The notes beneath the pieces were generated by a model. The model was not told the origin of the DNA and searched no databases. It worked only from the letters and a program-made list of their open reading frames with translations. The position numbers and the translations under genes were made by a program. From positions 2,070,001-2,102,000 of the forward strand of contig NZ_CP047960.1 in the NCBI RefSeq assembly GCF_014280195.1: a stretch of DNA of 32,000 nucleotides. Direction: 5' to 3'. Shown here piece by piece: positions 1,211 through 24,701 of the stretch. The DNA is from Synechococcus sp. A15-24. Lineage in GTDB: Bacteria > Cyanobacteriota > Cyanobacteriia > PCC-6307 > Cyanobiaceae. Within the stretch, counting starts at the first letter, position 1; each line of letters starts with the position of its first letter.

Positions 1211-2325
1211 GGATCGATGCTCAGATAGGCCTCCATAAAGCGCTGCATCTGGCTGGTGGTGCCGATGCTGACGCGGAAACACCCATCAATCAGCGGTTTG
1301 CCCGCCATGGAACGGATCAGGATGCCCTCACTGCGCAAGGCCGCATCGATCTCTTCCACGGAGCGCCGGGGCCAGATCAACAGATAATTACCGCCATCGC
1401 AGTGGTGGCGCACGCCCGCGTCCCGCAGCGCCTGCAGGATCCAATCGCGAGCACGCAGCACCTCGGCCACATAGGCGTCCACATACGACTGATCGGCCAA
1501 GGCAGCAAACGCTGCAGCCACGGCCACGCTGTTGACGTCGTAAGGCCCCGTGACGCGGCTCACCCGATCGACCACATCGGCATGACCAATGGCAAAGCCA
1601 ATCCGCAACCCCGCCAATCCAGCTGTTTTGGCCAAGGAGCGGAACACCAGCAGATTCGGTGTGGCCGTGAAATCCGCGCTCGGCAGCACGCTGTCCCCGG
1701 TGAAGGCCTCGTAGAGCTCATCCACCACCACCAAGGTGCCCGGGGCTGAGGCCGCCAAAGCAATCACCTGATCCGCTGGCAAGCGCGTGCCGGTGGGGTT
1801 GTTGGGGTTGCAGATCAACAGCAACCGCGGCGTGCGAGCCGCCAACGCCTCCTGAATGGCCGCCAGGGGGAAGTCAAACGTCTCCCCCTCGTAGGAGATC
1901 GCCTTGATCGTCATGCCCTGCATCCCAGCGCAGGGGCTGTAGTACCCGAAGGTGGGCGCTGTGGTCAGCAAAGTTTCACCGGCATCGCCATAGGCCTGCA
2001 ATACCGCATGGATGGCGGCATCCACACCGTTGAACAGGCCCACCTGAGCAGGCTTCAACCCCAGACGGCAGCCGGTCTCCACCAGGTTCTGGAGCAGCGC
2101 CTCCCGCAGGCCGTCGTACTCCGGATAAACGGCAATTTCTTCGGTGCTGAAGTTGCGCAGCGCCTGGGCCACCAGGGGGCTGGGGCCAATCGTGTTCTCG
2201 TTGAAATCAAGCCGCAGCATCTGGCGGCGACCCTCCAGAGGCGCGCTGTAGGCCTTGAGCTGCTCCACTGCGGCGCGGGCCGCAGGAGCACCACCGGGGG
2301 TGAACGGTTGGATGGTGTCGCTCAC
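1207..2325 (-). CDS. hisC: Histidinol-phosphate aminotransferase family (class II PLP aminotransferase)
   Basis: Motifs '[12 protein letters not shown]', 'NPNNPTG' and '[17 protein letters not shown]' (PLP lysine region). GTG start at 2323-2325 overlaps the argS stop (GTGA). Exact substrate is not provable from sequence. Confidence 0.65.
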
Positions 2326-4097
2326 ATGCGGTCCAGGGTTGCGATGCCCAGCAGTCTGAGACCCAGTCTGAGGGTGTCTGCCGTTAAGCGGCAGAGGGCG
2401 AGGCGGGATGCCAGCGCTTCAGGATCCGCCTTGAGCACCGGCACCTGGTCGTAGAAGCGGTTGAACATCTGGCTGAGCTCGAACAGATAGCTGCAAAGGC
2501 GGTTGGGCAGTAGCTCCTCCTCCACCTCGGCGATCACGGTGTCGAACTTGAGCAGCTCCCGCACCAGGGCCCATTCCTGGGGTTCGCTGAACTGCAGCTG
2601 GCCCGTCGACACCTCCAGGTCACCCCCTTTGCGGGCGATGCCGGCGATGCGCACCACCGCATAGAGCAAGTAAGGGGCCGTGTTGCCCTGCAACGCCAAC
2701 ATCCGGTCGAAGGAGAATTGGTAGTTGGTGATCCGGTTCTGGCTGAGGTCGGCATATTTCACCGCCGCCAAACCCACAGTGCCCGCCACTTGCTGGATGA
2801 ACTCCTCCGACTCGCTGCGCTCCTCCACCTTCAGACGCGAGCGCAGGTCAGCTTCGGCCCGCTCCACCGCTTCATCGAGCAGATCCCGCAACCGCACCGT
2901 GTCGCCGGAGCGGGTCTTGAGCTTCTTGCCGTCTTCCCCCTGCACCAGGCCAAAGGGCACGTGCTCGAGGCGCGCACCTCCGGGAATCCAGCCAGCCCGT
3001 TCGGCCACCTGGAACACCCCGGCGAAGTGATTGGCCTGGCCTGCATCGGTCACATAAATCACCCGGCGTGCGTCATCCCCGTCCGGAGCCGCACCAAAGC
3101 GGTAGCGGATCGCCGCCAGGTCGGTGGTGGCGTAGTTAAAGCCCCCGTCGCTCTTCTGCACTATCACCGGCAGGGGCTTGCCGTCCTTGCCCTGCACACC
3201 TTCGAGGAACACACACTGGGCACCGTCATCGGTGACCAGCAACTCGGCGGCCTTCAGCCCATCAATCACCGCGGACAGGAAGGGGTTGTAGAACGACTCA
3301 CCTCGCTCATTGAGGCGAATATCGAGCCGGTCGTAGATCTTCTGGAACTCACGCCGCGACTGATCGCAGAGCAGTCCCCAGGCCTTGAGCGACACTGGAT
3401 CCCCCCCCTGAAGTTTCACCACCTCATCGCGGGAGGTGGTCTGGAAGGCGTCGTCGTCGTCGTCGAAGCGTTTCTTGGCTTCGCGGTAGAAGGCCACTAA
3501 ATCGCCCAGATCCACTGCATCGGCGGTGTCCAGGGCGTCCGGCGCCACCTGCTTGAGATGGGTTATCAGCATGCCGAACTGGGTGCCCCAGTCGCCCACG
3601 TGATTGAGACGCAGCACGGGGTGGCCGCGGAACTCCAGCACCCGGGCCAGGGAGTCGCCAATGATCGTGGAACGCAGATGCCCCACATGCATCTCCTTGG
3701 CGATGTTGGGGCTGGAGAAATCCACCACCACCGGAGCAGCCTGCTCCACTGCAGGCACACCGAGTCGCTCATCTCCCAGCCGGGACGAGACCTCGGCCGC
3801 CAACCGCTCCGGGAGAATCGTGAGGTTGATGAAGCCAGGCCCGGCGATTTGCGGCTCCAGGCAGAGGTCTGTGAAGGCGGAATCGGCCTGCAGCTGCTCC
3901 ACGATCGCCGTGGCGATCTGGCGGGGGGCCTGCTTCAAGGGCTTGGCCAGGGGCAGCGCACCATTCGCCTGGAAGTCGCCGAATTCCGGCTTGCTGGCCG
4001 GCGCCAGCTGGGGGTCCAGCACCGCATCGGCCTCCGGGAAGGCCCGTTGCATCGCCGCCCGCAGCTGGGCATCCAGGGTGTTGGACAGGCTGAGCAT
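2322..4097 (-). CDS. argS: Arginine--tRNA ligase
   Basis: 598-aa ORF with class I signatures ('[21 protein letters not shown]' HIGH-type; '[17 protein letters not shown]', KMSKS-region-like) and an ArgRS-type C-terminal anticodon-binding end '..ATLDRM'. The ATG at 4095-4097 (MLSLSNTLD..) is preferred. An upstream GTG at 4118 is possible. Confidence 0.9.
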
Positions 4098-4131
4098 CAG
4101 GGCCGAAACATCCGGCACCGATCATCTCTCC

Positions 4132-4971
4132 TCAGGTGAAGCGCATGCTCAGATCCAGCCAGCGGCTGCGGGTCACCGGCGCGCTGGTGGAGATCAGATC
4201 AATGCCGGTGGCGGCGTAGGCCTGCAACTGCTCGGGCTGAATGCCGGAGGCCTCCAGCACCACCACACCGGTGCTGCAGTCCCGCAAGCGCGGCACCAGC
4301 TGCGTGAGCTGCTCAGGGCTGAATTCATCCAACAGCACCCCATTGGCGCCCGCCTGCACCGCCTCCAGCGCCTGAGCCTCCGTCTCCGCTTCCACAATCA
4401 CGGCCGTAGGCCAGGGGGCCTGCTCACGCACAGCCGCGATGGCCATCGTGATGCCCCCCGCCCAGGCGATGTGGTTCTCCTTCAGCATTGCCGCATCATC
4501 GAGACCCATGCGGTGGTTGATGCCGCCACCGCAGCGCACCGCATATTTCTCCAGCAAGCGAAGCCCCGGTGTGGTCTTGCGGGTGTCGGCCAGACGCACA
4601 CCCGTGCCCTCAAGCTGGGCCACCAATTCAGCTGTGGCGGTGGCGATGCCTGACAGCCGCATGGCCAGGTTCAAGGCGGTGCGCTCGCCAGCCACCAGGG
4701 CCGTGGCCGGGCCTTCCAGGTCGAGCAGGCGATCACCCACCTCCACCGCGGCACCGTCATCCCGAAGCAAGTGAACGCTCACTTCAGGATCAAGCCGTTG
4801 GAACAGCTGTTGCACCAAGGGGCCTCCACAGAAACAGCCCGTCTGCTTCGCGATCCAATAGGCATAGCCGTGCTTGCCCTGCAGGGCTGAAGCGGTGAGA
4901 TCGCCGCGGCCAATGTCCTCCTCCAGCCATCGGTCGAGGGCGCGGGTCAGTGCCGAGGACTGCCAGTCCAT
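4132..4971 (-). CDS. nadC: Nicotinate-nucleotide pyrophosphorylase (carboxylating), quinolinate phosphoribosyltransferase
   Basis: 'WLEEDIGRGDLT', 'ERTALNLAMRLSGIAT', 'DTRKTTPGLR..EKYAVRCGGG.NHR', 'IMLDNF-like LLDEFSPEQL'. ATG at 4969-4971 (MDWQSS..) chosen. The ORF-track start at 5058 adds a 29-aa non-conserved-looking leader. Confidence 0.88.
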   Translation of the reverse strand: MDWQSSALTRALDRWLEEDIGRGDLTASALQGKHGYAYWIAKQTGCFCGGPLVQQLFQRLDPEVSVHLLRDDGAAVEVGDRLLDLEGPATALVAGERTALNLAMRLSGIATATAELVAQLEGTGVRLADTRKTTPGLRLLEKYAVRCGGGINHRMGLDDAAMLKENHIAWAGGITMAIAAVREQAPWPTAVIVEAETEAQALEAVQAGANGVLLDEFSPEQLTQLVPRLRDCSTGVVVLEASGIQPEQLQAYAATGIDLISTSAPVTRSRWLDLSMRFT

Positions 4972-4979
4972 TCCGCTAA

Positions 4980-6620
4980 TTGCGGTTGAGCGGACTGTAT
5001 GGGAAAGGCCAGGCTGATCACGATGCGGCGAACTGCTTGTCGACACAACACCGAACAAAGCTCAGGATCCAGACCGGTGATCTCGACGGTCTACTTGGAC
5101 TGGGCCTGAACAACCTGATTCAAGTCCTGCTGATCATCAGCCTGTGCCGCGGCGTGCTCGGCTTCCCCGACAGTCTGCTGTTCGGAATAATCCTGCCGGC
5201 GACAGGGATCAGCCTGCTGCTGGGAAACCTGATCTATGCCCAGCAGGCCCGGAGGCTGGGCCAAGCCGAGCAGAGGGGCGACTGCACAGCGCTCCCCTAC
5301 GGCGTCAACACGGTGAGCCTGTTCGCCTTTGTGTTTCTGGTGATGCTGCCGGCCAAGTTGTCTGCTCTCGATGCAGGACTGAGCGAGGCCGAGGCCGTGC
5401 AGCGCTCCTGGCAGGTGGGATTAATAGCTTGCCTAGGGTCCGGTGTCATCGAAACCCTGGGTGCCTTTGTTGCCCAGCACTTACGGCGCTGGTTACCTCG
5501 GGCTGCGCTGCTCTCCACCCTGGCGGGCATTGCGCTGGGCTACATCGCCCTGGGATTTTTGCTGCGCACCTACGCCAATCCCCTGATTTGCCTCACCAGC
5601 CTGAGCGTGATCCTGCTGGGCTATCTCGCCAGGGTGCGCTGGCCACTGCCGACGGGACTGCTGGCCTTGCTGCTGGGCATGGTTCTGGCCTGGGGGAGCG
5701 GACTGATCTCTCCCGATGCTGCGAGCTGGACGCAGGCTGCCCGTGCCATCGGCGTGCACCTCCCAAGTCTCCAGCTGTCTGCGCTCTGGCAAAGCCGCTT
5801 TGATCTGATCCCCTGGATGGGGGTGATCTTGCCGATGGGGCTGTTCAACCTGATCGGCTCACTGCAAAACCTGGAGAGTGCGGCAGCAGCCGGCGACACC
5901 TACCCAACACGCGGCAGCTTGATGGTGGATGGCTGCGGCACCCTCACAGCTGCGGCCCTGGGCTCCTGTTTTCCGACAACCCTCTACATCGGGCATCCGG
6001 GCTTCAAAGCCCTGGGGGCCCGCTCGGCCTACTCCTGGATGAACGGAGTGGTGATGGCCGTCGGCTGCCTGTTCGGCCTGTTCGGGGTGGTGACTGTGCT
6101 GATCCCAGTGGAAGCGGGGCTAGCGATCCTGCTGTACATCGGCCTGGCCATGGCCTCGCAAGCCTTCGCCTCAACATCTGAGCGCCATGGTCCGGCCGTG
6201 GTGCTCGGGATGCTTCCTGGTGTGGCGGGCTGGGGCGCACTGATGCTCAAAGCTGGCATCCGAGCCGGAGGAGCAGCGGGTGATCCCAAGCTGTTCGGGC
6301 CGCAGCTGCTGACGCAACTGGCCACGGCCGACATCTGGGCCGCTGGCGTGTTTGCACTGGAGCAGGGGCAGATCATCACGGCCATGTTGCTTTCGGCCTG
6401 GCTTGTGTATGCGATTGAAAGTCGCTTTCTGGCCGCCGCCTGTTGCTCCGCCATGGCCGCGCTACTGGCCTGGTTCGGCGTCATCCATGCCTGGCAGTTC
6501 AGTCCGGGGGACACGGTGATGCACTTGGGCTGGGGAACAGGCCGAGCTTGGGCGGAGGGTTACGCCGCCATCACGGTGATTGTCCTATTGGCGCGATGGC
6601 GCCAACAAACGGACCATTGA
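4980..6620 (+). CDS. Polytopic membrane permease, xanthine/uracil/vitamin C (NCS2/AzgA-like) family
   Basis: 546-aa ORF with many hydrophobic segments. 'GDLDGLLGLGLNNLIQ', 'ALPYGVNT' and glycine-rich helices are typical of AzgA-type nucleobase permeases. The start is uncertain. 4980 is a TTG only 8 nt from the divergent nadC start. An in-frame TTG at 5037 is an alternative. Confidence 0.6.
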   Translation: MRLSGLYGKGQADHDAANCLSTQHRTKLRIQTGDLDGLLGLGLNNLIQVLLIISLCRGVLGFPDSLLFGIILPATGISLLLGNLIYAQQARRLGQAEQRGDCTALPYGVNTVSLFAFVFLVMLPAKLSALDAGLSEAEAVQRSWQVGLIACLGSGVIETLGAFVAQHLRRWLPRAALLSTLAGIALGYIALGFLLRTYANPLICLTSLSVILLGYLARVRWPLPTGLLALLLGMVLAWGSGLISPDAASWTQAARAIGVHLPSLQLSALWQSRFDLIPWMGVILPMGLFNLIGSLQNLESAAAAGDTYPTRGSLMVDGCGTLTAAALGSCFPTTLYIGHPGFKALGARSAYSWMNGVVMAVGCLFGLFGVVTVLIPVEAGLAILLYIGLAMASQAFASTSERHGPAVVLGMLPGVAGWGALMLKAGIRAGGAAGDPKLFGPQLLTQLATADIWAAGVFALEQGQIITAMLLSAWLVYAIESRFLAAACCSAMAALLAWFGVIHAWQFSPGDTVMHLGWGTGRAWAEGYAAITVIVLLARWRQQTDH

Positions 6621-6640
6621 CCGCATCCTTGTGGCCGGTC

Positions 6641-6653
6641 ATTTGCCAATGCA
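6641..6653. repeat. Left copy of the 13-bp direct repeat ATTTGCCAATGCA (attL-like)
   Basis: Identical to 9606-9618. Read on the minus strand it gives ..C-I-G-K followed by TGA (6639-6641), a duplicate of the MnmE C-terminus. Confidence 0.75.
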
Positions 6654-7057
6654 TAAGTTGTCAAGAAACCTAGTTGTCGCAGCAAGTATTACCCGAGCAA
6701 ATAAGTCTGTTGTGCAGCCAATATAAAAGGCAGAATTTGCTTAATGTTTCTGGAACGGTTCGACCTGATCCTGCAGCACGCCGTCTTCATCGTGGCTTGA
6801 AAAATGTGGCGTTTCGTAGCCCCCTCCCTTTAAGAATTAAGGTAATTTGCGATGTAGACGCCAGAAACATCGAATAAGCCTTCTAGACAGGCTCAGCGAC
6901 TTCCAAGCTCAGTAGTTAATTAGTTAGAAAACCGTATGACTTGTGAAGTAGAACTGCTGTTAGCGCTCCAAAACCTTAATAATTGTTGCATATTGGGCCC
7001 TTTTGCGCTGTTTTTCAATAGAAGAGTCAGTATAAAAGTAAATTTTGTGGGTAATTC

Positions 7058-9184
7058 ATGGAAGAAGAAAATTCTGCAGAACTAGATTTATTAGAAAATA
7101 TTTCTGAAAATCTTGAGTCAGTGCAGGAATCAGAACCTGTTTGGGAGGAACCTATTTGGGAGGAACCTGTTTTTGATGATGTCACGATCTCGTCGGTCGC
7201 ATGGGCTGGAAGTAAGCATTGGGATCGTGCTATCTACACGTTGTCTAATGGCAACACTGCTTTTGCTTCGAAAGGATTGGATGCCGGAGACTCCCCTTTT
7301 GATTACGAAGAAATCAGAACATCAGGGGGTGGTTATTTCAGTGATCCTGGAGGAATTGTCGGTCATACCCACACACGTAATGGCGGAGCTCTAATCATTA
7401 AGCAGGGTGAGTCCTTCCTGCAACAGCAATATGCCTGGGGTAATCAAGGGCCAGTGATGTCCCCCAACACTTCTGACGTCACAAAACAGATTGGCTCCAT
7501 TGAGGAGCGAGAACAGGAGGATATGAATGGTGATGGATTTATAGGTGCGCCTGAGGAAGATGAACCAGAGGTTGAGGTTTCCTCAATTGTTTACGAAAAT
7601 ACAGACGCTAATTTTGACAGATCTATCTATAAAATGACAGATGGTTCTGTTCGCTTAGCTGAACAGGGTCTCTCTATCGGAGATTTGCCTTATGAAGGGT
7701 ACGATCATCTAAAATCTAAAGATGGTTCTCCGATTGAAACGCTGGGAATTGTAGGAGCTATATGGATGAATAACGGGTTTGCTGTACTTTATAACAATGA
7801 TAGTGTCATAACTCAGCAGGCTTTTAAATGGGGAAATAGCGGTCTAAGACCGTCTGGCAGTTTACGCAATGTCACAAGGCAGATTGATACAATTGAAGAA
7901 CGTGAAGGTATTGATATTAATGGAGATGGTCGAGTAGGTAATGAGCTTTCAGAAGATGCTGAGGTTCAGTCGGTTGTTTACGATAATCCCGATGCTGGTT
8001 TTGACCGATCGATCTATAAAATGACTGACGGCACTGTTCGCTTGGCCGAACAGGGCCTCTCTGCCGGAGATTTGCCTTTTGAAGGAGATGATCTGTCAGA
8101 GAAAGACGGATCACCGCTTGGGATAGACGGCCTTGTAGGTATTCTTGGATTACGCAATGGTTTTGGCATAATTTACAATAACAATGGTTTTATTATGCAG
8201 CAACAATTTAAATGGGGGGGGAAAGGCATAAAAGCTAGCGGTCAGTTGCGCGATGTTACCAAACAGCTTGCTTTAATTGAGGAGCGTGAAGGCATTGATG
8301 TCAACGGTGATGGCCTGATAGGTGAGCAATTTGAAGAAGATGCTGAAGTTCTATCCGTTCTTTTTAGCCCTGATCCTGAAGCTTACGATCGCTCTCTCTA
8401 TGAACTCACCTCCGGGGATGTAGTTCTCGCAGAGATTGGACTTCGGCCTGGAGAAATACCTTTCGAGTCTGATCCTCTCTCCTACGCAAATGGCACATCT
8501 ATTGAAGCAGATCGCGTGGTCGGCCTAATTGGGACTAGAAGCGGAGAAGCAGTCATCTTCAAGAACGGAGATAGCTATTCCATGCAACAATTTAAGTGGG
8601 CTGGTCGAGGTTTAAAACCCAAAGGGAAAGAGCGTGATATTACGAGGAGAATCTACGAAGTCGAAGAACGTGAATATTATGACTTCACCGGTGATTTAAT
8701 CATTGGAGATCCTTCTTCATCCTCCAGTGATGATCTTGAGGTAAGAAGAGTAATTTTTCTTGGAAATGATGAATTCAGTGAAGGTCTCTACCAGATGGAT
8801 AATGGAGATTTGGTCTTTGCAGAGTCCGATCTTAGTCCTGGGGATACACCCTTTGAAGATGAAATCATTACTGGCAAAAACGGAAAGCCATACCAAGGAG
8901 ACTATGTCGTTGGGATTTATCCAATAAAGAATGGGTTTGCATTGATTGAGAATGTTGAAGGTATATATAAAGAGCAAGGATTCCGATTCAAAGGTGGTGG
9001 AAGGCCAAAACCCTTTGGGAAAGCACGCGCTGTAAAGGATATTGGCAAAATTGAATCAAAATATGGTTTTGATTTAGATAATGACGGATTGGTCGATGAT
9101 GGCAGTAATATAGATGACTTAGGGCCCGCTTTTCGATTGATTCAGCAACTCGATTTAAATAATATTTCAGACACCCTCGTCTAA
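7058..9184 (+). CDS. Acidic, cysteine-free tandem-repeat protein. Five ~130-aa modules each end in a DxNGDG/DxDxDG Ca-binding-like loop. No recognised family.
   Basis: 708-aa ORF, ATG start, the only long ORF in the low-GC island. Recurring anchors: [FWY]DR[SA][IL]Y.[ML][TS].G at aa 55, 186, 315 and 443 (R5 degenerate, FSEGLYQMDNG at 572); FKWG at aa 256, 384 and 512 (variants at 125 and 642); IEERE..D.NGDG at aa 148, 279 and 407 (degenerate at 535 and 664). No N-terminal signal peptide (MEEENSAELDLLEN..). No Cys in 708 aa. Confidence 0.8.
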   Translation: MEEENSAELDLLENISENLESVQESEPVWEEPIWEEPVFDDVTISSVAWAGSKHWDRAIYTLSNGNTAFASKGLDAGDSPFDYEEIRTSGGGYFSDPGGIVGHTHTRNGGALIIKQGESFLQQQYAWGNQGPVMSPNTSDVTKQIGSIEEREQEDMNGDGFIGAPEEDEPEVEVSSIVYENTDANFDRSIYKMTDGSVRLAEQGLSIGDLPYEGYDHLKSKDGSPIETLGIVGAIWMNNGFAVLYNNDSVITQQAFKWGNSGLRPSGSLRNVTRQIDTIEEREGIDINGDGRVGNELSEDAEVQSVVYDNPDAGFDRSIYKMTDGTVRLAEQGLSAGDLPFEGDDLSEKDGSPLGIDGLVGILGLRNGFGIIYNNNGFIMQQQFKWGGKGIKASGQLRDVTKQLALIEEREGIDVNGDGLIGEQFEEDAEVLSVLFSPDPEAYDRSLYELTSGDVVLAEIGLRPGEIPFESDPLSYANGTSIEADRVVGLIGTRSGEAVIFKNGDSYSMQQFKWAGRGLKPKGKERDITRRIYEVEEREYYDFTGDLIIGDPSSSSSDDLEVRRVIFLGNDEFSEGLYQMDNGDLVFAESDLSPGDTPFEDEIITGKNGKPYQGDYVVGIYPIKNGFALIENVEGIYKEQGFRFKGGGRPKPFGKARAVKDIGKIESKYGFDLDNDGLVDDGSNIDDLGPAFRLIQQLDLNNISDTLV
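7178..9112 (+). repeat. Five tandem coding repeats of ~385-393 bp (approx. 7178-7567, 7568-7960, 7961-8344, 8345-8737, 8738-9112)
   Basis: Protein-level periodicity is 128-131 aa. Repeats 2 and 3 are also visibly similar at DNA level (e.g. ATCTATAAAATGAC and CGGAGATTTGCCTT are shared). Repeats 1, 4 and 5 are more diverged. Confidence 0.8.
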
Positions 9185-9603
9185 TGTTTAATACCTTCAT
9201 ACTTTACTTAGTCGGCCAAGGAGAAACATGTGAATAACGCTCAACTAATACTTGCCATACCCTTTTGATTAACCTCTCTTAACTTCTGAGCTGAGCAATT
9301 CGGGAAGTAGCTGGAATTGCTGGCACAAAATCATTAACTTGTACTGAAAGAAAGTTTATTCCTTCCTTAAATGCCACATTCAATAAAATGGCCCGAAATA
9401 GTCATCAAATAAATAGCTGACTTAAATCTTCATCGTTTTAGTGCTATAGATTTTCAATTGATGAGCAACCTGCTTTATACTGTCTTAGCAACAGCAAAAA
9501 TGTTGCCAATGTCGAGCCATGTTGAGTGGAGCAATGCACAATTGCTCAACAAGTTTTGCTATATTTTGCCAGATGTTTGCAATGCTTTTCAAGGTTTGCT
9601 GAA

Positions 9604-10932
9604 TTATTTGCCAATGCAGAAACGGGAAAATACGCGATCAAGCACCGCTTCAGTAAGCTCTTCGCCCGTGATCTCCCCCAGGGCACTGATCGCCTCGCGC
9701 AGGTCGATCGTCCAGAAATCCCAGGGCAATTGCTGGGCCGCGACCTCCTGACTGCGGCCAAGAGCAGCGGCGGCAGTAGCGGCCAGATCCCTTTGGCGCT
9801 CGTTCAGAGCTAGTAGCACCCCTTCAGTGCCTGCAGCCCCACAACGCTCCAGCAGAGCCTGCACCAGGTCTTCCTCACCCGTGCCCTCCAACGCCGACAG
9901 CTGCACATCCACTGGCTGGGGCAAGGCCCCCGCGGGAAGATCCGCCTTGTTGGCGACAAGGATCCTGGGGATGTGCTCTGGGATTCGCGCCAGCAAAGCA
10001 GCGTCTTCGGCGGTCCAGCCCGCATGACCATCGAGTACTAATAGCACCACATCCGCCGTGGCCAGAGCCTCTTCGCTGCGGGCAATTCCCAGCTGTTCCA
10101 CCGCATCGTCGGTGCTTCGAATGCCGGCGGTATCGAGCAGGGTGATCGGCACCCCCTCCAATACGATCTCGCTCTCCAGCAGATCACGGGTGGTACCCGG
10201 CAGCTCGGTCACAATCGCCCGCTCGCGCCGGCTGAGCCGATTCAAAAGCGAGCTCTTGCCCACGTTGGGGCGGCCCACCAACGCCACCCGAAGACCGCTG
10301 CGCAGGGTTTCCCCGCGCTCTCCATCCGCCACCAGGGTGAGCAATGCCTGGCGCACCTGCTGCAAGTCATGCAGCAAGGCATCACCATCCAACGGCGGCA
10401 GATCCTCTTCGAAATCCACCCGCGCCTCCAGCTCGGTGAGCTGATCCAGCAGCTGCTCGCGCAATGTTGTGATCCGAGCCTGAATGCCGCCATCCAGGCC
10501 GGCGATGGCCAGGTCCGCTGCCCGCCGACTGCGGGCCGCCACCAACTGACTGATGGCTTCGGCACGGGTGAGATCCAGACGGCCGTTCAGCACGGCCCGC
10601 TGGCTGAATTCTCCGGGCAACGCCCGCCGCACCCCCGGATGCGCAAGCACCCGTTCCAGCACCTGCTGCACAGCGATCACCCCGCCATGGCAGTGGATCT
10701 CCACCACGTCCTCACCGGTGAAGCTGCGAGGTCCGCGCATCAGCAGCAGCAACACCTCATCCAGGCGTCGCTGACCATCAGCACCGAGCACATGGCCGTA
10801 GAGCACCCGGTGGGACTGCCAGTCCTGCTGGCCTGGAACGTGGACGACCGCTTGACCGACGTCCTCCGCCGCCGGGCCAGAGACACGCACCACGGCGATT
10901 CCCCCCTGGCCCGGCGCCACGGCTGTCGCCAC
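9604..10932 (-). CDS. mnmE: tRNA modification GTPase MnmE (TrmE/ThdF)
   Basis: 'GQGGIAVVRVSG', the G-domain 'GRPNVGKSSLLN' and 'DTAGIR', and the C-terminal 'FCIGK' signature. 10932 is a GTG. The conserved N-terminal residues (..SDTIAAV) are encoded upstream of it with no canonical start, so the real start may be CTG at 10957-10959. Confidence 0.9.
   Translation of the reverse strand: MATAVAPGQGGIAVVRVSGPAAEDVGQAVVHVPGQQDWQSHRVLYGHVLGADGQRRLDEVLLLLMRGPRSFTGEDVVEIHCHGGVIAVQQVLERVLAHPGVRRALPGEFSQRAVLNGRLDLTRAEAISQLVAARSRRAADLAIAGLDGGIQARITTLREQLLDQLTELEARVDFEEDLPPLDGDALLHDLQQVRQALLTLVADGERGETLRSGLRVALVGRPNVGKSSLLNRLSRRERAIVTELPGTTRDLLESEIVLEGVPITLLDTAGIRSTDDAVEQLGIARSEEALATADVVLLVLDGHAGWTAEDAALLARIPEHIPRILVANKADLPAGALPQPVDVQLSALEGTGEEDLVQALLERCGAAGTEGVLLALNERQRDLAATAAAALGRSQEVAAQQLPWDFWTIDLREAISALGEITGEELTEAVLDRVFSRFCIGK
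9606..9618. repeat. Right copy of the 13-bp direct repeat ATTTGCCAATGCA (attR-like). It overlaps the last codons of mnmE.
   Basis: Identical to 6641-6653. The minus strand encodes ..F-C-I-G-K-TAA (stop 9604-9606). Confidence 0.75.
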
Positions 10933-11022
10933 AGCAGCAATGGTGTCGGAGGCGTTCAGGGCAACGGCTGCGTCTCAGTTCCCATACCTAGGATCTCGTA
11001 CCTTCATTGCACGCCTGGGTCC

Positions 11023-11475
11023 ATGCAACGGTTGCTGCAGACCAACCGTGAACGCCTGCGCCGCGGCCTGAAATGGCTTTGGGCGCAAGAAGGCACACCC
11101 GGGCAACGGGCCAGGGGACTGGCGGCTGGCGTGTTCTGCGGCTGCTTCCCGTTTTTCGGCCTGCAGATCGTGCTGAGCATTGGGGTGGCGAGCCTCGCCC
11201 GCGGCAACCATCTCCTCGCGGCAGCAGGAACACTGGTGAGTAACCCGATCACCTATGTGCCGCTGTACTGGTTCAACTTCGTGGTGGGCAACCGGCTGCT
11301 CGGACCTCTCGCCGGAGCCGACTTGGATGATGTGAACCGCAGCAACCTCTGGGACCAAGGCTGGGATGTCCTGCAGCGTCTTCTCCTTGGATCCACGTTG
11401 GTGGGGACTCTGATGGCTTTGCTGCTGGGACTGCTGGCCTACCTGCTCTTCCAACGGCGCCCGAGCGTCAGCTGA
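11023..11475 (+). CDS. DUF2062-family small membrane protein
   Basis: ATG at 11023. 'GLAAGVFCGCFPFFGLQIVLSIGVASL..GNHL.AAAGTLVSNPITYVPLYWFNF' is typical of DUF2062. The long upstream part of ORF 10369..11475 is antisense to mnmE and was discarded. Confidence 0.7.
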   Translation: MQRLLQTNRERLRRGLKWLWAQEGTPGQRARGLAAGVFCGCFPFFGLQIVLSIGVASLARGNHLLAAAGTLVSNPITYVPLYWFNFVVGNRLLGPLAGADLDDVNRSNLWDQGWDVLQRLLLGSTLVGTLMALLLGLLAYLLFQRRPSVS

Positions 11476-13798
11476 TACCCGTTCGGGCAATATCGATCAC
11501 ATCAGCCATGGAGCGGATCTGATTCATGGTGCGGCTCAGCTGATCCGAACCTCGCAGTTCCACCCGCAGGTCGATCCTCGCTGGTCGGCCCACAGCGGTT
11601 TTCACCTGAGCATCACTGACGTTGATGGCCCCATCGGACAGGCGCATCAGGATGTCCTTGAGAATGCCCACACGGTCGATCACCTCGATCCGCAACTGCA
11701 CGGGAAAGCGTTGTAGGGGCTGTGAACCATGCACGTTCCAACGCACCGGCAAACGCCGATCCTTGGGAATCGACTCAACATTGGCGCACTCCTGGCGGTG
11801 GATGGTGATGCCATGGTTGCCGAGGGCCACCGTGCCAACAATTGCTTCACCCGGTAGTGGGCTGCAGCAGCCCCCCAGGCGGTAGTCCAACCCTTCCAGG
11901 CCAAGAATCGCGTCTTCGCTGTGGCGTTGATCTGAGCCTGGCTCCTTTGAGGGCACAAGGGCCCTGGCCACCTCCTCGTTGCTGGGGGGGGCGCTGTCCT
12001 GCTCGGCGATCAGACGTATCTCCTCGCGGAAGCGATTGAGCACCTGTTGCAGGGTCACGGCACCGAAGCCGAGCGAGGCCAGCAGGTCGTCGGTGGAGCC
12101 AACGTTGCAGCGCTGAGCCACCCGGGTCATCGCCTCACCGTTCAACAGGGCTTCGAAGCCATCCCGACCCAGTTCGCGCTCCAGCAAATCCTTGCCCCGC
12201 TCGATCGTCTCGTCCCGGTGGCTGCGCTTGTACCACTGGCGGATGCGGTTCCGGGCCGTGGGGGTGGCGACGAAATTGAGCCAATCCAGGCTCGGATGGG
12301 CCGTGTTGCTGGTGAGGATCTGAACAAAGTCACCGTTCTGCAACGCCGTGGTCAGCGAACAGAGACGGTCGTTGATGCGGGCACCGTGGCAGTGGTTCCC
12401 CACCTCGGAATGGATCCGGTAAGCGAAGTCCACCGGGGTCGCCCCTTTGCGCAGCCCCACCACGTCGCCCTTCGGGGTGAACACAAACACCTCTTCGTCG
12501 AAGAGATCCTCTTTGATCGACGAGAGGTAGTCGTTGTGGTCATCGTTACCACCCTCCTGTTGCCAATCCACCAGTTGCCGCAGCCAGTTGAAGCGTTCCG
12601 CCTCGCTGCTGCTGCTGGCCGGTGAACCGCCCTCCTTGTATTTCCAGTGGGCTGCAATGCCGAATTCCGCCACACGGTGCATCTCAATGGTGCGGATCTG
12701 CACCTCAATCGGGCGGTGACGTCCGATCACTGCGGTGTGCAGCGACTGGTAGCCGTTGGGCTTGGGCAGACCGATGTAGTCCTTAAAACGACCGGGAATT
12801 GGACGGAAGGTGTCATGCACCACAGCCAGGGCCCGGTAACAGGCCTCGACACTTGGCGTGATGATCCGCAGCGCGGCCACGTCGTAGATCTCGTGGAACG
12901 CCTTCTGCTGGCGCTGCATCTTGCTCCAGATGCCGAAAAGGTGCTTCGGACGGCCGCTGACTTCACAACCCTCAAGGCCAGCCTGAGCCAAGCGGTCGTT
13001 GAGCAGTGCGACGGTGACCCCCAGCCGCTCCTCCCGCTCACTGCGCTTGCTGGCCACCTCCTGCTGGATCTCCCGGAACGCCTCCGGCTCCAGCAACTTG
13101 AACGCCAGGTCCTCCAGTTCCCATTTGAAGCGACCGATGCCCAGTCGATTGGCCAGGGGTGCATAGATCTCTTTGGTCTCCCGGGCAATGCGCTGGCGCT
13201 TCTCCTCTTTGAGCGCCCCAAGCGTCCGCATGTTGTGAAGCCGATCTGCCAGCTTCACCAGGACCACGCGGATGTCACTGGCCATCGCCAAGAACATTCG
13301 CCGCAGATTCTCGGCCTGGGCCTCGGTGCGGTTGTTGAAGTGAATGCCACCCAGCTTGGTGACTCCCTCCACCAGCTCGCGCACTTCAGAGCCGAAATGC
13401 AGCTCGATCTGGTCAGGGGTGACGTCAGTATCTTCCACCACGTCATGCAGGAACCCGGCGGCGATCACGCTGGCGCTGGCGCCGATGTCCCTCAGCAGAT
13501 CGGCAACGGCAACGGGATGAACGATGTAAGGGTCACCGCTGGCCCGGAATTGGCCCTCATGCAGCTGAAAACCGAAATCGAAGGCCGCCACCAGCAGCGC
13601 TTCAGGATCGATCGGACAGCTCTGCCCCAGGCCCGGTGGAACGTTGAGGATGCATTGCCGGAGCCACTCCGGCAAAGGGATGTTGTATTCGTCCGGATGG
13701 CGCACCGGATGACGCCTCAACTCAGGACGACCGCACACAACAGGAGCCGGAGCACTGTCGGTCCGGGAGGAATCCTGTGGTGAGGAAGCGTCGAGCAT
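11468..13798 (-). CDS. spoT: Bifunctional (p)ppGpp synthetase/hydrolase, RelA/SpoT homologue
   Basis: HD domain ('HPVAVA..LHDVVEDT'), synthetase domain ('YRALAVVHD..FKDYI..PKPNGYQSLHT'), TGS region ('VFVFTPKGDVV.L..GATPVDFAY.IH') and a C-terminal ACT-like region. ATG at 13796-13798 (MLDASS..) chosen. Confidence 0.9.
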   Translation of the reverse strand: MLDASSPQDSSRTDSAPAPVVCGRPELRRHPVRHPDEYNIPLPEWLRQCILNVPPGLGQSCPIDPEALLVAAFDFGFQLHEGQFRASGDPYIVHPVAVADLLRDIGASASVIAAGFLHDVVEDTDVTPDQIELHFGSEVRELVEGVTKLGGIHFNNRTEAQAENLRRMFLAMASDIRVVLVKLADRLHNMRTLGALKEEKRQRIARETKEIYAPLANRLGIGRFKWELEDLAFKLLEPEAFREIQQEVASKRSEREERLGVTVALLNDRLAQAGLEGCEVSGRPKHLFGIWSKMQRQQKAFHEIYDVAALRIITPSVEACYRALAVVHDTFRPIPGRFKDYIGLPKPNGYQSLHTAVIGRHRPIEVQIRTIEMHRVAEFGIAAHWKYKEGGSPASSSSEAERFNWLRQLVDWQQEGGNDDHNDYLSSIKEDLFDEEVFVFTPKGDVVGLRKGATPVDFAYRIHSEVGNHCHGARINDRLCSLTTALQNGDFVQILTSNTAHPSLDWLNFVATPTARNRIRQWYKRSHRDETIERGKDLLERELGRDGFEALLNGEAMTRVAQRCNVGSTDDLLASLGFGAVTLQQVLNRFREEIRLIAEQDSAPPSNEEVARALVPSKEPGSDQRHSEDAILGLEGLDYRLGGCCSPLPGEAIVGTVALGNHGITIHRQECANVESIPKDRRLPVRWNVHGSQPLQRFPVQLRIEVIDRVGILKDILMRLSDGAINVSDAQVKTAVGRPARIDLRVELRGSDQLSRTMNQIRSMADVIDIARTGIS

Positions 13799-22372: not shown

Positions 22373-23449
22373 TCAAGCCAGTGGCGCACGGCTCAGCTCC
22401 TTGCGCATCGCGCTGACGATGCAGCGATTGTTCCGCCGTGACTGCAGACCGATCCGGAGCCAGTTCTCTCCCAGCCCTTCAAACGAACGGCAATCACGCA
22501 GAAGGATCCTGTGGTGCAGCTCCAGCGCTTGGCGCAGGGGCAGCAGGGATCGGTTCGCCCGAATCAGCAGGTAATTCACTGCTGATGGCATGGGGGTGAT
22601 GCCAGGCAGCAACGCAAGCTGCTGCTGCATCCAGGCTCCTTCCCGCGCCACCCAAGCCTGCGTTTGCCGACACCAGCGCTGATGGCGACGGGGGGATCCC
22701 AACAAGCGTTGGCCAACGGCCATGGCAATGCCATTCACAGGCCAGGGATCGCGCCACTGAGCCCAGCGCTGCAGGCGTTCGGGCTGTGCAACGGCATACC
22801 CGAGCCGCAACCCGGCAATGCCATAGAGCTTGGTGAGGCTGCGGATCACCACCAGATTTCCGGTCTTGGCCACCAACGGAATCAACGACTGCTGCTCGCC
22901 CGCGGGCACCAGCGGCAGAAAGGCTTCATCGCAGATCACCAGACGAAACCGCTTCAGCAACGGTTCCAGAAATGCCCGACTCCAGAGCTGACCTGTGGGG
23001 TTGTGGGGGTTGCAGATCCACAACACCTCAGCCTCAGCAGGCGATGGAAAGGGTTGAGGACGATCACCACTCCAGGAGAGCGGCAGCTGGTGACGGATCC
23101 AGGACCCATCCCAACAACCCAGGGCTCGGCTGTAATCGGCGAACCCTGGCGATGGCACCAAGCTCAGGCCTGAACTGGCCGCATCTCGCGCCGCCCAGGT
23201 GAACAGTTCCGCCGCCCCGTTCCCCACCAGCAACAGCTCGGAGGGAACACCATGCAGCCGCGCCAGGTCGCATCGCAGCTGGTTATGACTGCGATCTGGA
23301 TAGTCACGGATAATCGATCGGCTGAGGCGAGGCAGACGCGGGGTCCAGGGCACGAGCGACGCACTGGCATCCAGCAGATCAGAGGGTCGGCAGCCGAGGC
23401 GCTCGGCGATCGAAGCTCGGTTGCCGCCGTGACGGTGCTCGACGTCCAT
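22373..23449 (-). CDS. cobD: L-threonine-O-3-phosphate decarboxylase-like aminotransferase (CobD family)
   Basis: The ATG at 23447-23449 gives 'MDVEHRHGGN..', the HGGN N-terminus typical of CobD. Also 'NPHNPTG' and 'IRSLTKLYGIAGLRLGY'. The 156 codons upstream in the same open frame are a secretin remnant, not part of this enzyme. Confidence 0.75.
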   Translation of the reverse strand: MDVEHRHGGNRASIAERLGCRPSDLLDASASLVPWTPRLPRLSRSIIRDYPDRSHNQLRCDLARLHGVPSELLLVGNGAAELFTWAARDAASSGLSLVPSPGFADYSRALGCWDGSWIRHQLPLSWSGDRPQPFPSPAEAEVLWICNPHNPTGQLWSRAFLEPLLKRFRLVICDEAFLPLVPAGEQQSLIPLVAKTGNLVVIRSLTKLYGIAGLRLGYAVAQPERLQRWAQWRDPWPVNGIAMAVGQRLLGSPRRHQRWCRQTQAWVAREGAWMQQQLALLPGITPMPSAVNYLLIRANRSLLPLRQALELHHRILLRDCRSFEGLGENWLRIGLQSRRNNRCIVSAMRKELSRAPLA

Positions 23450-23599
23450 CGCGACTCCCGATACAACCCAGAGACACCCCCCAGCGTCGCCCACCGCGCC
23501 CATGGCGATTCGAGCTGTCCTGCTGTTGTCGCTGGTGCTGGTCACCACCCCGAAGGCATGGAGCGCTGATGCCAAGGATCTGGTCCGAATACTGAAAAG

Positions 23600-24158
23600 C
23601 GGGCGCTGAACCAGCTGACGCCCTGCCGGCGTGCCAGGGCGATAGCCGTAACCGAAGCGACCGCCCTGCTCATCATCCAGAATGGTCGGCGTGACGATGA
23701 TTACCAATTCGTTCTTTTCCCGAGACGACGAGGACTGACAGAACAGCTGCCCAATCAGCGGCATGTCGCCAAGAATCGGCCATTTACGCACCTGCTGACG
23801 GTCCGAATCGGTAATCACACCCGTAAGAATCAACGACTGTCCATCACGGAGGCGGATGCTTCCAGACTCCAATTTTCGAGCCTGAATGTTGAAGATTCCG
23901 ACACCTTCTTCCGACACCTTCCTGCGTTCCGGCAGGAATCTGCACAGATATTTCAGGCTTCAGCTCAAGACTGATAAATCCATTGTCATCAATTTTGCTC
24001 ACCGAAAGATCAACTGTGAGGCCAGCATTCTCGCGAGTGTTCTGAAACTGTGTTGAACCATTGGCTGTTTCCGTAGCACTCACCCCTTTAATCACACTCT
24101 GGCCAGTTTCTACCATGGCGGCTTCCCCTTCCTGCACCAACAATGTGGGCTGGGCCAA
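23600..24158 (-). pseudogene. pilQ: Type IV pilus / type II secretion secretin (PilQ/GspD family), C-terminal domain remnant. N-terminally truncated and frameshifted.
   Basis: Two ORF pieces. '..AQPTLLVQEGEAAMVETGQSV..GLTVDLSVSKIDDNGFISLELKPEISV..' is at 23844..24158. '..IFNIQARKLESGSIRLRDGQSLILTGVI......VRKWPILGDMPLIGQLF......NELVIIVTPTIL' is at 23680-23900. They join perfectly if one 13-bp repeat unit is removed. Only ~540 bp, stop-ridden in all frames, separates it from pyrD, so the N0/N1/AMIN region is missing. Confidence 0.75.
23896..23921. repeat. Exact 13-bp tandem duplication TTCCGACACCTTC x2 (minus strand GAAGGTGTCGGAA x2) that frameshifts the secretin
   Basis: 23896-23908 equals 23909-23921 base for base. 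Both secretin ORF pieces contain 'EGVG' translated from the two copies. Confidence 0.95.
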
Positions 24159-24701
24159 TAGACACCACTTACAGGGAGCAGCAGCTCAAGCTGAACACCG
24201 ACCACATCACTATCAAAGAGAAGTTCCTCCAGCGCCTCGCTCATCGCCTTGCGCTGCATTGGCATGCCATCACGGCAGGCATCAGGGGGCCAATCAACGG
24301 ATCGCCAGTACCAGATCGACTTGTGCAGCCAGCAACAGATCAATCGACGCTCTGTGGCCAAAGCCAGAACTCGACGCACGCCAAGAAGACGCTTCAAGCC
24401 AGTCTGAAAAGCCTGAACCTGAGGAATTTCAACCAGGGACAGCGGACTCAATCAGACACATTGTTTTGACCCAGGATATCCAGATCGTAGCAAGAAGACA
24501 AGACAAATTTTATAGGCAATGCAGGCAACTCATTCACCTGGTTTTCATCAAAAAAATCTTTAATCGCGATCAACAATCAAATCACTCCACTCTTTGATTC
24601 TGAGTTAACGAAGCATAGTGAAATCAAAAAACGATCATCAATTCCTGATGGAGTCACTCCGCCAATCTTGAAGTAAGCCAATTGAATCTTTAACCCCCGA
24701 A

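Follow-up and report, generated by a model that had tools for sequence, protein, structure and literature searches.

A low-GC island at the 3' end of mnmE

The DNA analysed here is a 32-kb stretch of Synechococcus sp. A15-24 (contig NZ_CP047960.1, positions 2,070,001 to 2,102,000), referred to below as the window. In this stretch the tRNA modification GTPase gene mnmE and a purine permease gene are convergent, and a low-GC island carrying one cargo gene for a repeat protein is located between them. The segment from 6641 to 9622 is probably the remnant of site-specific integration into the mnmE 3' end by small (about 10-12 kb) picocyanobacterial integrative elements, and now persists as a fixed relic resembling a cis-mobilizable element (CIME).

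The island is bounded by the 13-mer ATTTGCCAATGCA, of which exactly two copies are present in the window, at 6641-6653 and 9606-9618, both on the plus strand. The chance expectation, as a mean over shuffled sequences with one mismatch tolerated, was 0.08. The GC content is 0.60-0.67 (about 0.63) outside the island and 0.37-0.47 (about 0.40) between the copies, and it switches exactly at the 13-mers. At third codon positions it amounts to 0.34 in the cargo gene versus 0.65-0.82 in the neighbouring genes. The C-terminus of MnmE, ...SRFCIGK followed by a TAA stop, is encoded by the right copy. Read on the minus strand, the left copy also gives C-I-G-K, with a TGA stop at 6639-6641, and 20 nt separate the permease stop from the core. 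A preliminary description made from the window sequence had reported the repeat in the same orientation, the GC switch at its copies and both versions of the mnmE end; all of these held, and the 13-mer proved not to be dispersed within the 32 kb. Its statement that neither an integrase nor a transposase is aboard was likewise borne out, as no recombinase or transposase domain was detected in the 29 open reading frames (ORFs) of the window, those of the island included, and the integrase of the elements described below gave no tblastn match to the window. No tRNA gene is present in the 32 kb.

The island recurs in the same position in two metagenome contigs. One (L081, ERZ922693) matches window positions 4007-9638 with 94% nucleotide identity, the other (L087, ERZ802827) matches positions 6481-11667 with 95-97%, its MnmE being 96.6% identical at the amino acid level. 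The flanking repeat of either contig extends without mismatch over 17 nt, ATTTGCCAATGCAGAAG, so the 13-mer of the window can be recognized as a slightly mutated 17-bp core. When stretched to 17 nt, each window copy has one mismatch, due to later substitutions specific to the window (G>T at 6654 and G>A at 9622, the latter synonymous); the two cores are identical at 15 of 17 positions, including 13 contiguous bases. Read in the mnmE sense, the core is C-TTC-TGC-ATT-GGC-AAA-T, i.e. F-C-I-G-K plus the first stop base, and it comprises the last 16 coding nucleotides of mnmE and the first base of its stop codon.

Empty sites were found in relatives. In a relative detected via its permease gene (L178, 87% nucleotide identity), the permease stop is followed by 20 nt, the core and mnmE, and an equivalent empty site is present in L180. 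The empty site reconstructed in silico from the window (permease stop, 20 nt, core) agrees with these natural sites. The compact convergent junction that the preliminary description expected on removal of the island therefore has natural counterparts, and these contradict the idea that all relatives carry an orthologous low-GC segment at this junction. The mnmE stop at the empty site of L178 is TGA, as kept in the orphan copy of the window. Occupancy is patchy along permease nucleotide identity: the site is filled in the clade of the window and in L179 (79% to the window), and vacant in L178 (87% to the window) and L180 (85% to L179). In three other genomes (L012, L046 and L065) mnmE and the permease gene are convergent and 0-50 bp apart, and in the closest species-representative genomes (L001-L007, MnmE identity 80-88%) nadC directly follows mnmE without permease or island.

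Parent elements and their attachment sites

The parent family is represented by three elements of 10.4-11.7 kb (L181, L182 and L183) from marine metagenome contigs, which were found via homologs of a DUF3987 protein. The 17,568-bp long-read contig L181 repeats itself with a period of 10,417 bp, and the L182 locus, on a long-read contig of 22,671 bp, with a period of 11,689 bp; such self-repetition points to tandem arrays or to circles outside the chromosome. In L181 the second copy of int is apparently frameshifted, which may be a read error. Based on a scan of a subset of their ORFs, each of the three elements encodes a 481-aa tyrosine recombinase (PF00589, 29.3 bits versus a cut-off of 27.1), a protein resembling ribbon-helix-helix (RHH) proteins, a DUF3987 primase/helicase-like protein and variable cargo. 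Weak primase and helicase matches were also obtained with PHROGs. A comparison of the recombinase (Int) with PDB, phages and plasmids gave only remote similarity (22-28%), to annotated integrases on alphaproteobacterial plasmids. A neighbouring 129-aa ORF (L182, L183) is a candidate excisionase. Nothing relevant was found when MnmE and Int were queried against IMG/VR.

About 115 bp upstream of int, each element carries an attachment site (attP) consisting of a P arm, an mnmE-like core and a P' arm. The cores read ATTTGCCAATGCAGAAC, ACTTGCCAATGCAGAAG or ATTTTCCAATACAGAAG, and the complete site of L183 is ...ctcaaggattattgaatt, then ATTTGCCAATGCAGAAC, then ttgtcaagaaacccagtt... The P-arm side (..ctcaaggattaytgaatt) matches the island end adjoining mnmE, and the P'-arm side (ttgtcaagaaaccyagtt..) matches the island end adjoining the permease gene. 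Correspondingly, the mnmE-side junction of the window reads ttttcaaggtttgctgaatt (P arm), core, mnmE, and the permease-side junction reads host, core, ttgtcaagaaacctagttgtc (P' arm). In blastn, positions 9569-9621 of the window aligned with L181 6495-6546 at 83% identity, and positions 6643-6674 with L182 9529-9560 at 90.6%. Exact 18-20-mers are common only to the island copies and the elements, and one 18-mer is shared with L183/L184. In the alignment of all sites, attP has the order P/core/P', the window attL is P/core/mnmE, the window attR is host/core/P', and the empty attB of L178 and L180 is host/core/mnmE.

Because the ends of the window island match both attP arms, the island is bounded by the attL and attR sites that result from attP x attB recombination: its repeats are the attP/attB core, its inner flanks are the attP arms, and the empty attB is present in relatives. 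This supports the attL/attR signature and the integration into the mnmE 3' end put forward in the preliminary description, which had also suggested looking elsewhere in the genome for a recombinase whose own island shares the core; one was found in the metagenome elements L181-L183. That this family of elements integrated here in a site-specific manner is strongly supported. In these elements int is situated at the end adjoining mnmE.

The occupied site of L179 (ERZ17173246) uses the same junction. Its permease stop is followed by ATTTGCCAATGCAGAAT and then ttgtcaagaacccttgtc..., the same orphan core and first island bases as in the window. Beyond this junction a different low-GC element extends over more than 4.8 kb and includes a gene for a 611-aa DUF3987 protein. 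The P' arm of L179 is well preserved, with 70-90% identity over the stretch where that of the window decays.

In the P' arm of L183 (5880-5960), a tandem of two ACACCTGTAAT units and the core-like palindrome TTGCCGAATCGGCAA were observed, which are candidate arm-type or accessory integrase sites. A repeat similar to the L183 tandem, TGTAATGC, is present in L179.

The interior of the island

The preliminary description had placed one cargo gene between two non-coding arms of about 400 bp. The single cargo gene was retained in our analysis, but the arms are not simply non-coding, as the left one contains a decayed rluE gene fragment and remnants of attP arms are present at both ends (Table 1). 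The P arm is recognizable over about 30-37 nt in the window, versus at least 120 nt conserved among intact elements. Over its first 20 nt the P' arm agrees with the attP of L183 and L182 at 90-100%, after which identity falls to about 50-60% up to about 80 nt. An integrase pseudogene in the arms was rejected, since tblastn detected no trace of int and the six-frame translations are full of stops.

The rluE fragment was identified by tblastn (E 2e-5) and by blastn and tblastx to L086, L088 and L085, and is RluE-like by NCBIfam; weak rluE similarity may continue to about 6760. In L085, L086 and L090, an intact rluE and infA enclose a low-GC islet that consists of one gene, a member of the cargo family. 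The cargo gene and rluE are divergent neighbours, and rluE is intact in L085, L086, L088 and L090. From the rluE fragment and its divergent cargo neighbour it follows that the island harbours DNA of another Synechococcus chromosome in its interior. In L082 and L083 the cargo gene is accompanied by a similarly truncated rluE, in other contexts. In L088 an intact rluE lies beside the cargo gene and a decayed second rluE is located downstream in place of infA; the two copies (108-770 and 3154-3501) flank the cargo gene and share 83% nucleotide identity over 321 bp. A circle with the truncated rluE and the cargo gene, inserted by a homology-driven single crossover, would be expected to give such a pattern.

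The cargo protein has 708 aa, with an acidic N-terminus, five repeats of about 128 aa and no signal peptide. Each repeat is predicted to form a seven-strand beta unit with a helix, followed by a D-x-N-G-D-G-x-I-G loop. All 48 homologs detected are unannotated and derive from marine metagenomes or Synechococcus genomes; no match was obtained in Pfam, NCBIfam or the PDB sequences. The full-length structural model (predicted template modelling score, pTM, 0.28) gave generic beta-propeller matches only, with template modelling (TM) scores of about 0.1, and a single-repeat model (predicted local distance difference test, pLDDT, 84) gave no significant fold match in PDB (best E 0.05, TM 0.37). By inference, the protein may bind calcium and be secreted or located at the surface. 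Its N-terminus contains DLEPVQES units that vary by strain, with 1, 3 and 6 copies (window 7058-7180; L081 3061-3230; L087 578-800), and a 15-nt tandem repeat encoding EEPxWEEP (Tandem Repeats Finder, 7133-7172).

Between the window and L081, identity is 97.0% in the permease gene, 94.3% in the left arm, 97.6% in the cargo gene and 91.4% in the right arm, the arms diverging by 6-9%. For the cargo gene, the proportion of synonymous differences (pS) is 0.059 and the ratio of nonsynonymous to synonymous proportions (pN/pS) is 0.24, and the gene is intact in three strains. This pattern of divergence shows that the island is older than the split of these strains, with arms that drift roughly neutrally and a cargo gene that has been maintained; judged by this ratio, the latter is under purifying selection.

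The right arm, 9185-9568, showed no similarity to the elements, phages, plasmids or Rfam families. Rfam models applied to 6300-10000 gave a sub-threshold snoRNA match only, and a scan for promoters and terminators yielded nothing above shuffled sequences. Neither the cargo nor the whole island matched phages, plasmids or IMG/VR. The 16-mer TTCTGCATTGGCAAAT had 86 matches in IMG/VR; among the 80 loci inspected, none lay at an mnmE gene end and no attP was found, and the stop-codon-bearing groups that were followed up are located inside phage structural genes, on the other strand. Core-like motifs are visible in the right arm at 9500-9516 and 9563-9586 (ATGTTGCCAATGTCGAG; ATTTTGCCAGATG; TTTGCAATGC; weakly above chance, p about 0.09), which could be traces of an older att copy. 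The idea of extra degenerate core copies in the arms was rejected, since only one weak match per arm was found (p about 0.05-0.09).

Table 1. Features of the mnmE-permease junction in the window
Feature	Position	Strand	Evidence
NCS2/AGZA-type purine permease gene, host flank, convergent with mnmE	4980..6620	+	ORF; homolog names
attR core, orphan mnmE 3' end (F/x-C-I-G-K and original host TGA, 6639-6641), 17 bp ancestrally, mutated at 6654	6641..6657	-	
Remnant of element P' arm	6658..6737	.	blastn, binned identity, shared 18-mer
Decayed 5' fragment of rluE-type pseudouridine synthase gene, codons 1-48, with frameshift and two in-frame stops	6821..6963	-	blastn, tblastx, tblastn
Upstream region moving with the cargo gene; rluE-cargo divergent intergenic region of the donor locus	6964..7057	+	common to L082, L088, L086
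Cargo gene, 708-aa acidic repeat protein	7058..9184	+	
Right arm of unexplained origin, stops in all frames	9185..9568	.	
Remnant of element P arm (int-proximal end); last two bases are the AA of the present TAA of mnmE	9569..9605	.	
attL core, functional last mnmE codons F-C-I-G-K and first stop base; synonymous change at 9622	9606..9622	-	
mnmE, tRNA modification GTPase, integration target	9604..10932	-	Pfam TrmE_N, MnmE_helical, MMR_HSR1

Origin of the island and related systems

The anatomy of the locus suggests the following course of events. In a strand exchange by the recombinase of the elements, attP would have been joined to the mnmE 3' end of the chromosome, after which the element would have been flanked by two core copies. 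The P arm would have given mnmE its new TAA stop by supplying the AA, and the original mnmE end with its TGA would have been stranded as an orphan beside the permease gene. In the order of capture and deletion that we infer, integration and replication genes would have been lost in this lineage, leaving arm remnants of about 30-37 nt (P) and about 20-80 nt (P'), and between them the decayed rluE 5' piece, the gene of the 708-aa repeat protein and about 385 bp of unexplained origin. The island would now be a fixed, vertically inherited islet, of which the cargo gene is the retained part.

Several points weigh against this reading. There is no recombinase in the window, so that catalysis by this particular Int has to be inferred. 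Among 80 species-representative picocyanobacterial genomes, neither a second core within 8 kb of mnmE nor an Int homolog there was found, so that the element family is rare or transient. For an intact integrated element, the L179 contig covers the permease-side junction only, and L181 and L182 are taken as circular from the self-overlap of their assemblies, which could instead stem from tandem arrays. Inside the island, the reading leaves some 385 bp in the right arm and some 80 bp in the left arm without explanation, and it does not account for the route by which the truncated rluE and the cargo gene came into an element.

The preliminary description had considered both mobilization in trans and a stripped-down relic; of the two, the relic fits better. 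It is unlikely that an island of the same origin continues to function as a non-autonomous element, a 'mini-tycheposon' of the CIME kind, which a full-length mnmE-targeting element present in one cell with it could move in trans or take along upon tandem accretion, so that a chromosomal gene would be shuttled. It is slightly less likely again that the island is a live partner of the mnmE-targeting elements, with just so much of both att sites left that the 481-aa recombinase, acting in trans, could excise and re-integrate it, with packaging or transfer in between. A working element would be in keeping with the retention of both att sites, with cores that still agree at 15 of 17 positions including 13 contiguous ones, with the good conservation of the core-proximal 20-30 nt of both arms, and with the occurrence of the cargo module with its truncated rluE in several unrelated contexts (L082, L083 and the window); mobilization of CIMEs by related elements is, moreover, documented in streptococci (PMC5704250). 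Against it, the P arm is gone beyond about 30-37 nt while at least 120 nt are conserved in intact elements, the P' arm is down to about 50-60% identity and each core carries a point mutation. In addition, three strains share the site with a divergence as at neutral sites, the arms were not found around cargo homologs elsewhere and no circular junction of the island was seen. The relic is preferred because the arms are truncated, both cores are mutated and the island has been inherited in at least three strains with neutral-looking divergence.

Integration without any recombinase, by a single (Campbell-type) crossover of a foreign circle at a chance 17-bp identity with the mnmE end, is very improbable, though it was a serious contender before the arm matches came to light. 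By our own estimate, about 0.2-0.9 17-mers are expected to be shared by chance between a 2.5-Mb genome and a random fragment of 3 kb, the interior is chromosomal DNA and not element genes, and the cargo gene of L088 between an intact and a truncated rluE shows the pattern of a homology-driven crossover. Such an event is effectively refuted by the independent elements, in which the attP arms that match both inner flanks adjoin a gene for a tyrosine recombinase; the junction is also used in L179, and the intact rluE genes lack core-like sequence, for which reason microhomology between rluE and mnmE was also rejected as a source of the repeat. Hardly any credence is due to a transposon that produced a long target-site duplication, or to a low-GC gene native to the site whose flanking repeat arose by chance. 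The insert is indeed flanked by a direct repeat, and 3 nt inside each copy there is a weak inverted repeat with 10 of 13 matches (6661-6673 versus the reverse complement of 9590-9602). This inverted repeat has only 9 of 13 matches in L081 and L087 and was therefore judged a chance occurrence, no transposase is present, a 17-bp duplication is atypical for a transposon and attP accounts for the arms. The missing transposase and the lack of conserved inverted repeats exclude transposition, and the empty sites exclude a native gene with a chance repeat.

Targeting of the mnmE/trmE 3' end is already known as the classic site of SGI1, Salmonella genomic island 1, and is not new in itself. The attP on which the Int of SGI1 acts is 18 bp long, and its recombination with the final 18 bp of thdF/trmE/mnmE gives 18-bp repeats DR-L and DR-R (PMC2297512, PMC8409611). 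The cyanobacterial elements use the same target gene and essentially the same nucleotides as in these last 18 bp of trmE/mnmE, and a tyrosine-type recombinase is involved in both cases. In SGI1, too, int lies at the element end adjoining mnmE, the same layout as in the cyanobacterial elements. The two systems differ in that SGI1 is an element of about 43 kb hosted by Gammaproteobacteria, which carries mpsAB/oriT, traN/G/H and integron resistance cargo and depends on IncA/C helper plasmids, whereas no domains of this backbone (SGI1-type int/xis, mpsAB-oriT, traN/traG/traH, AcaCD promoters) were found in the scanned ORFs of L179, L181, L182 and L183. The Int of the cyanobacterial elements also has no close match in plasmids or phages. 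The shared mnmE targeting may be a convergence on a very conserved sequence.

By gene content and size, L181-L183 resemble the tycheposons, whose reported targets in Prochlorococcus are seven genes for tRNA or tmRNA (Hackl et al., bioRxiv 10.1101/2020.12.28.424599), while tycheposon-like insertions in Synechococcus target tRNA-Phe (PMC8995045). Common to both are picocyanobacterial hosts, the 10-20 kb size class, a tyrosine recombinase, a primase/helicase module and variable cargo, without capsid or conjugation genes; within the ORFs scanned, this applies to the parents and not to the island. In tycheposons the recombinase may also be of the large serine type. Degenerate integrase-less remnants flanked by partial target copies are another likeness. 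In the tycheposon model, chromosomal DNA beside the element is proposed to be carried over from earlier hosts (Hackl et al., bioRxiv 10.1101/2020.12.28.424599), and an interior of truncated rluE and cargo gene is what this captured-flank model predicts. Unlike tycheposons, which integrate at tRNA/tmRNA genes, the elements described here target the 3' end of the protein-coding mnmE, and the literature searched contained no paper linking tycheposons or Synechococcus islands to mnmE. With regard to CIMEs, the island fits their definition in keeping its att sites and having lost its mobility genes (PMC5704250): attL and attR are present, and no recombinase was found among the ORFs of the island or the window. 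CIMEs are defined for decayed conjugative or mobilizable elements of Firmicutes, while the parent here is not conjugative, and the truncated arms of the island argue against its mobilization by a related recombinase.

As a decayed integrative element the island itself is an ordinary kind of object, which exposes an undescribed mnmE-targeting lineage of picocyanobacterial elements. With attB, attP, attL, attR and both an intact and a decayed element at hand, it is a worked example of how low-GC islets originate in marine Synechococcus. It also indicates that tycheposon-like elements of picocyanobacteria can use the 3' end of a protein-coding gene, where the literature searched mentions only tRNA genes. 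The use of the same 17-18 nt as by SGI1 in enterobacteria suggests that elements in different phyla favour the invariant F-C-I-G-K-stop as a landing site, and an interior from a recognizable chromosomal locus gives direct support to the model of elements that import host flanks and leave them behind. If the island were a live partner after all, chromosomal genes would become mobile cassettes between Synechococcus lineages via an att site in a protein gene, one reached independently by SGI1 in another phylum. The 17-mer and the arm motifs provide a search key for further islands and elements, the attP pattern being 'GAATT, core, TTGTCAAG'.

Some observations were made on the neighbouring genes. 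The permease has 546 aa and thousands of homologs, with source names such as 'NCS2 family permease' and 'adenine/guanine/hypoxanthine permease'; no match at E<=0.01 was obtained in the Pfam or NCBIfam copies used. Its gene overlaps or abuts the divergent nadC start, and is found between mnmE and nadC in scattered lineages only. A contig of a freshwater Cyanobium metagenome-assembled genome (L068) carries two mnmE copies (2184-3509 and 8001-9332) separated by 5.8 kb, with one and the same ORF upstream of each. Between the copies a spoT fragment and genes of unrelated enzymes are located, without a recombinase; this locus, probably a duplication or an artefact of the metagenome-assembled genome, was rejected. 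Elsewhere in the window, a second low-GC patch (0.45-0.55) at 22373-24700 encodes C-terminal fragments of a PilQ-type secretin, including a 514-aa ORF in which the secretin is fused in frame to a class I/II aminotransferase (Pfam Secretin and Aminotran_1_2). This patch is probably a decaying secretin gene.

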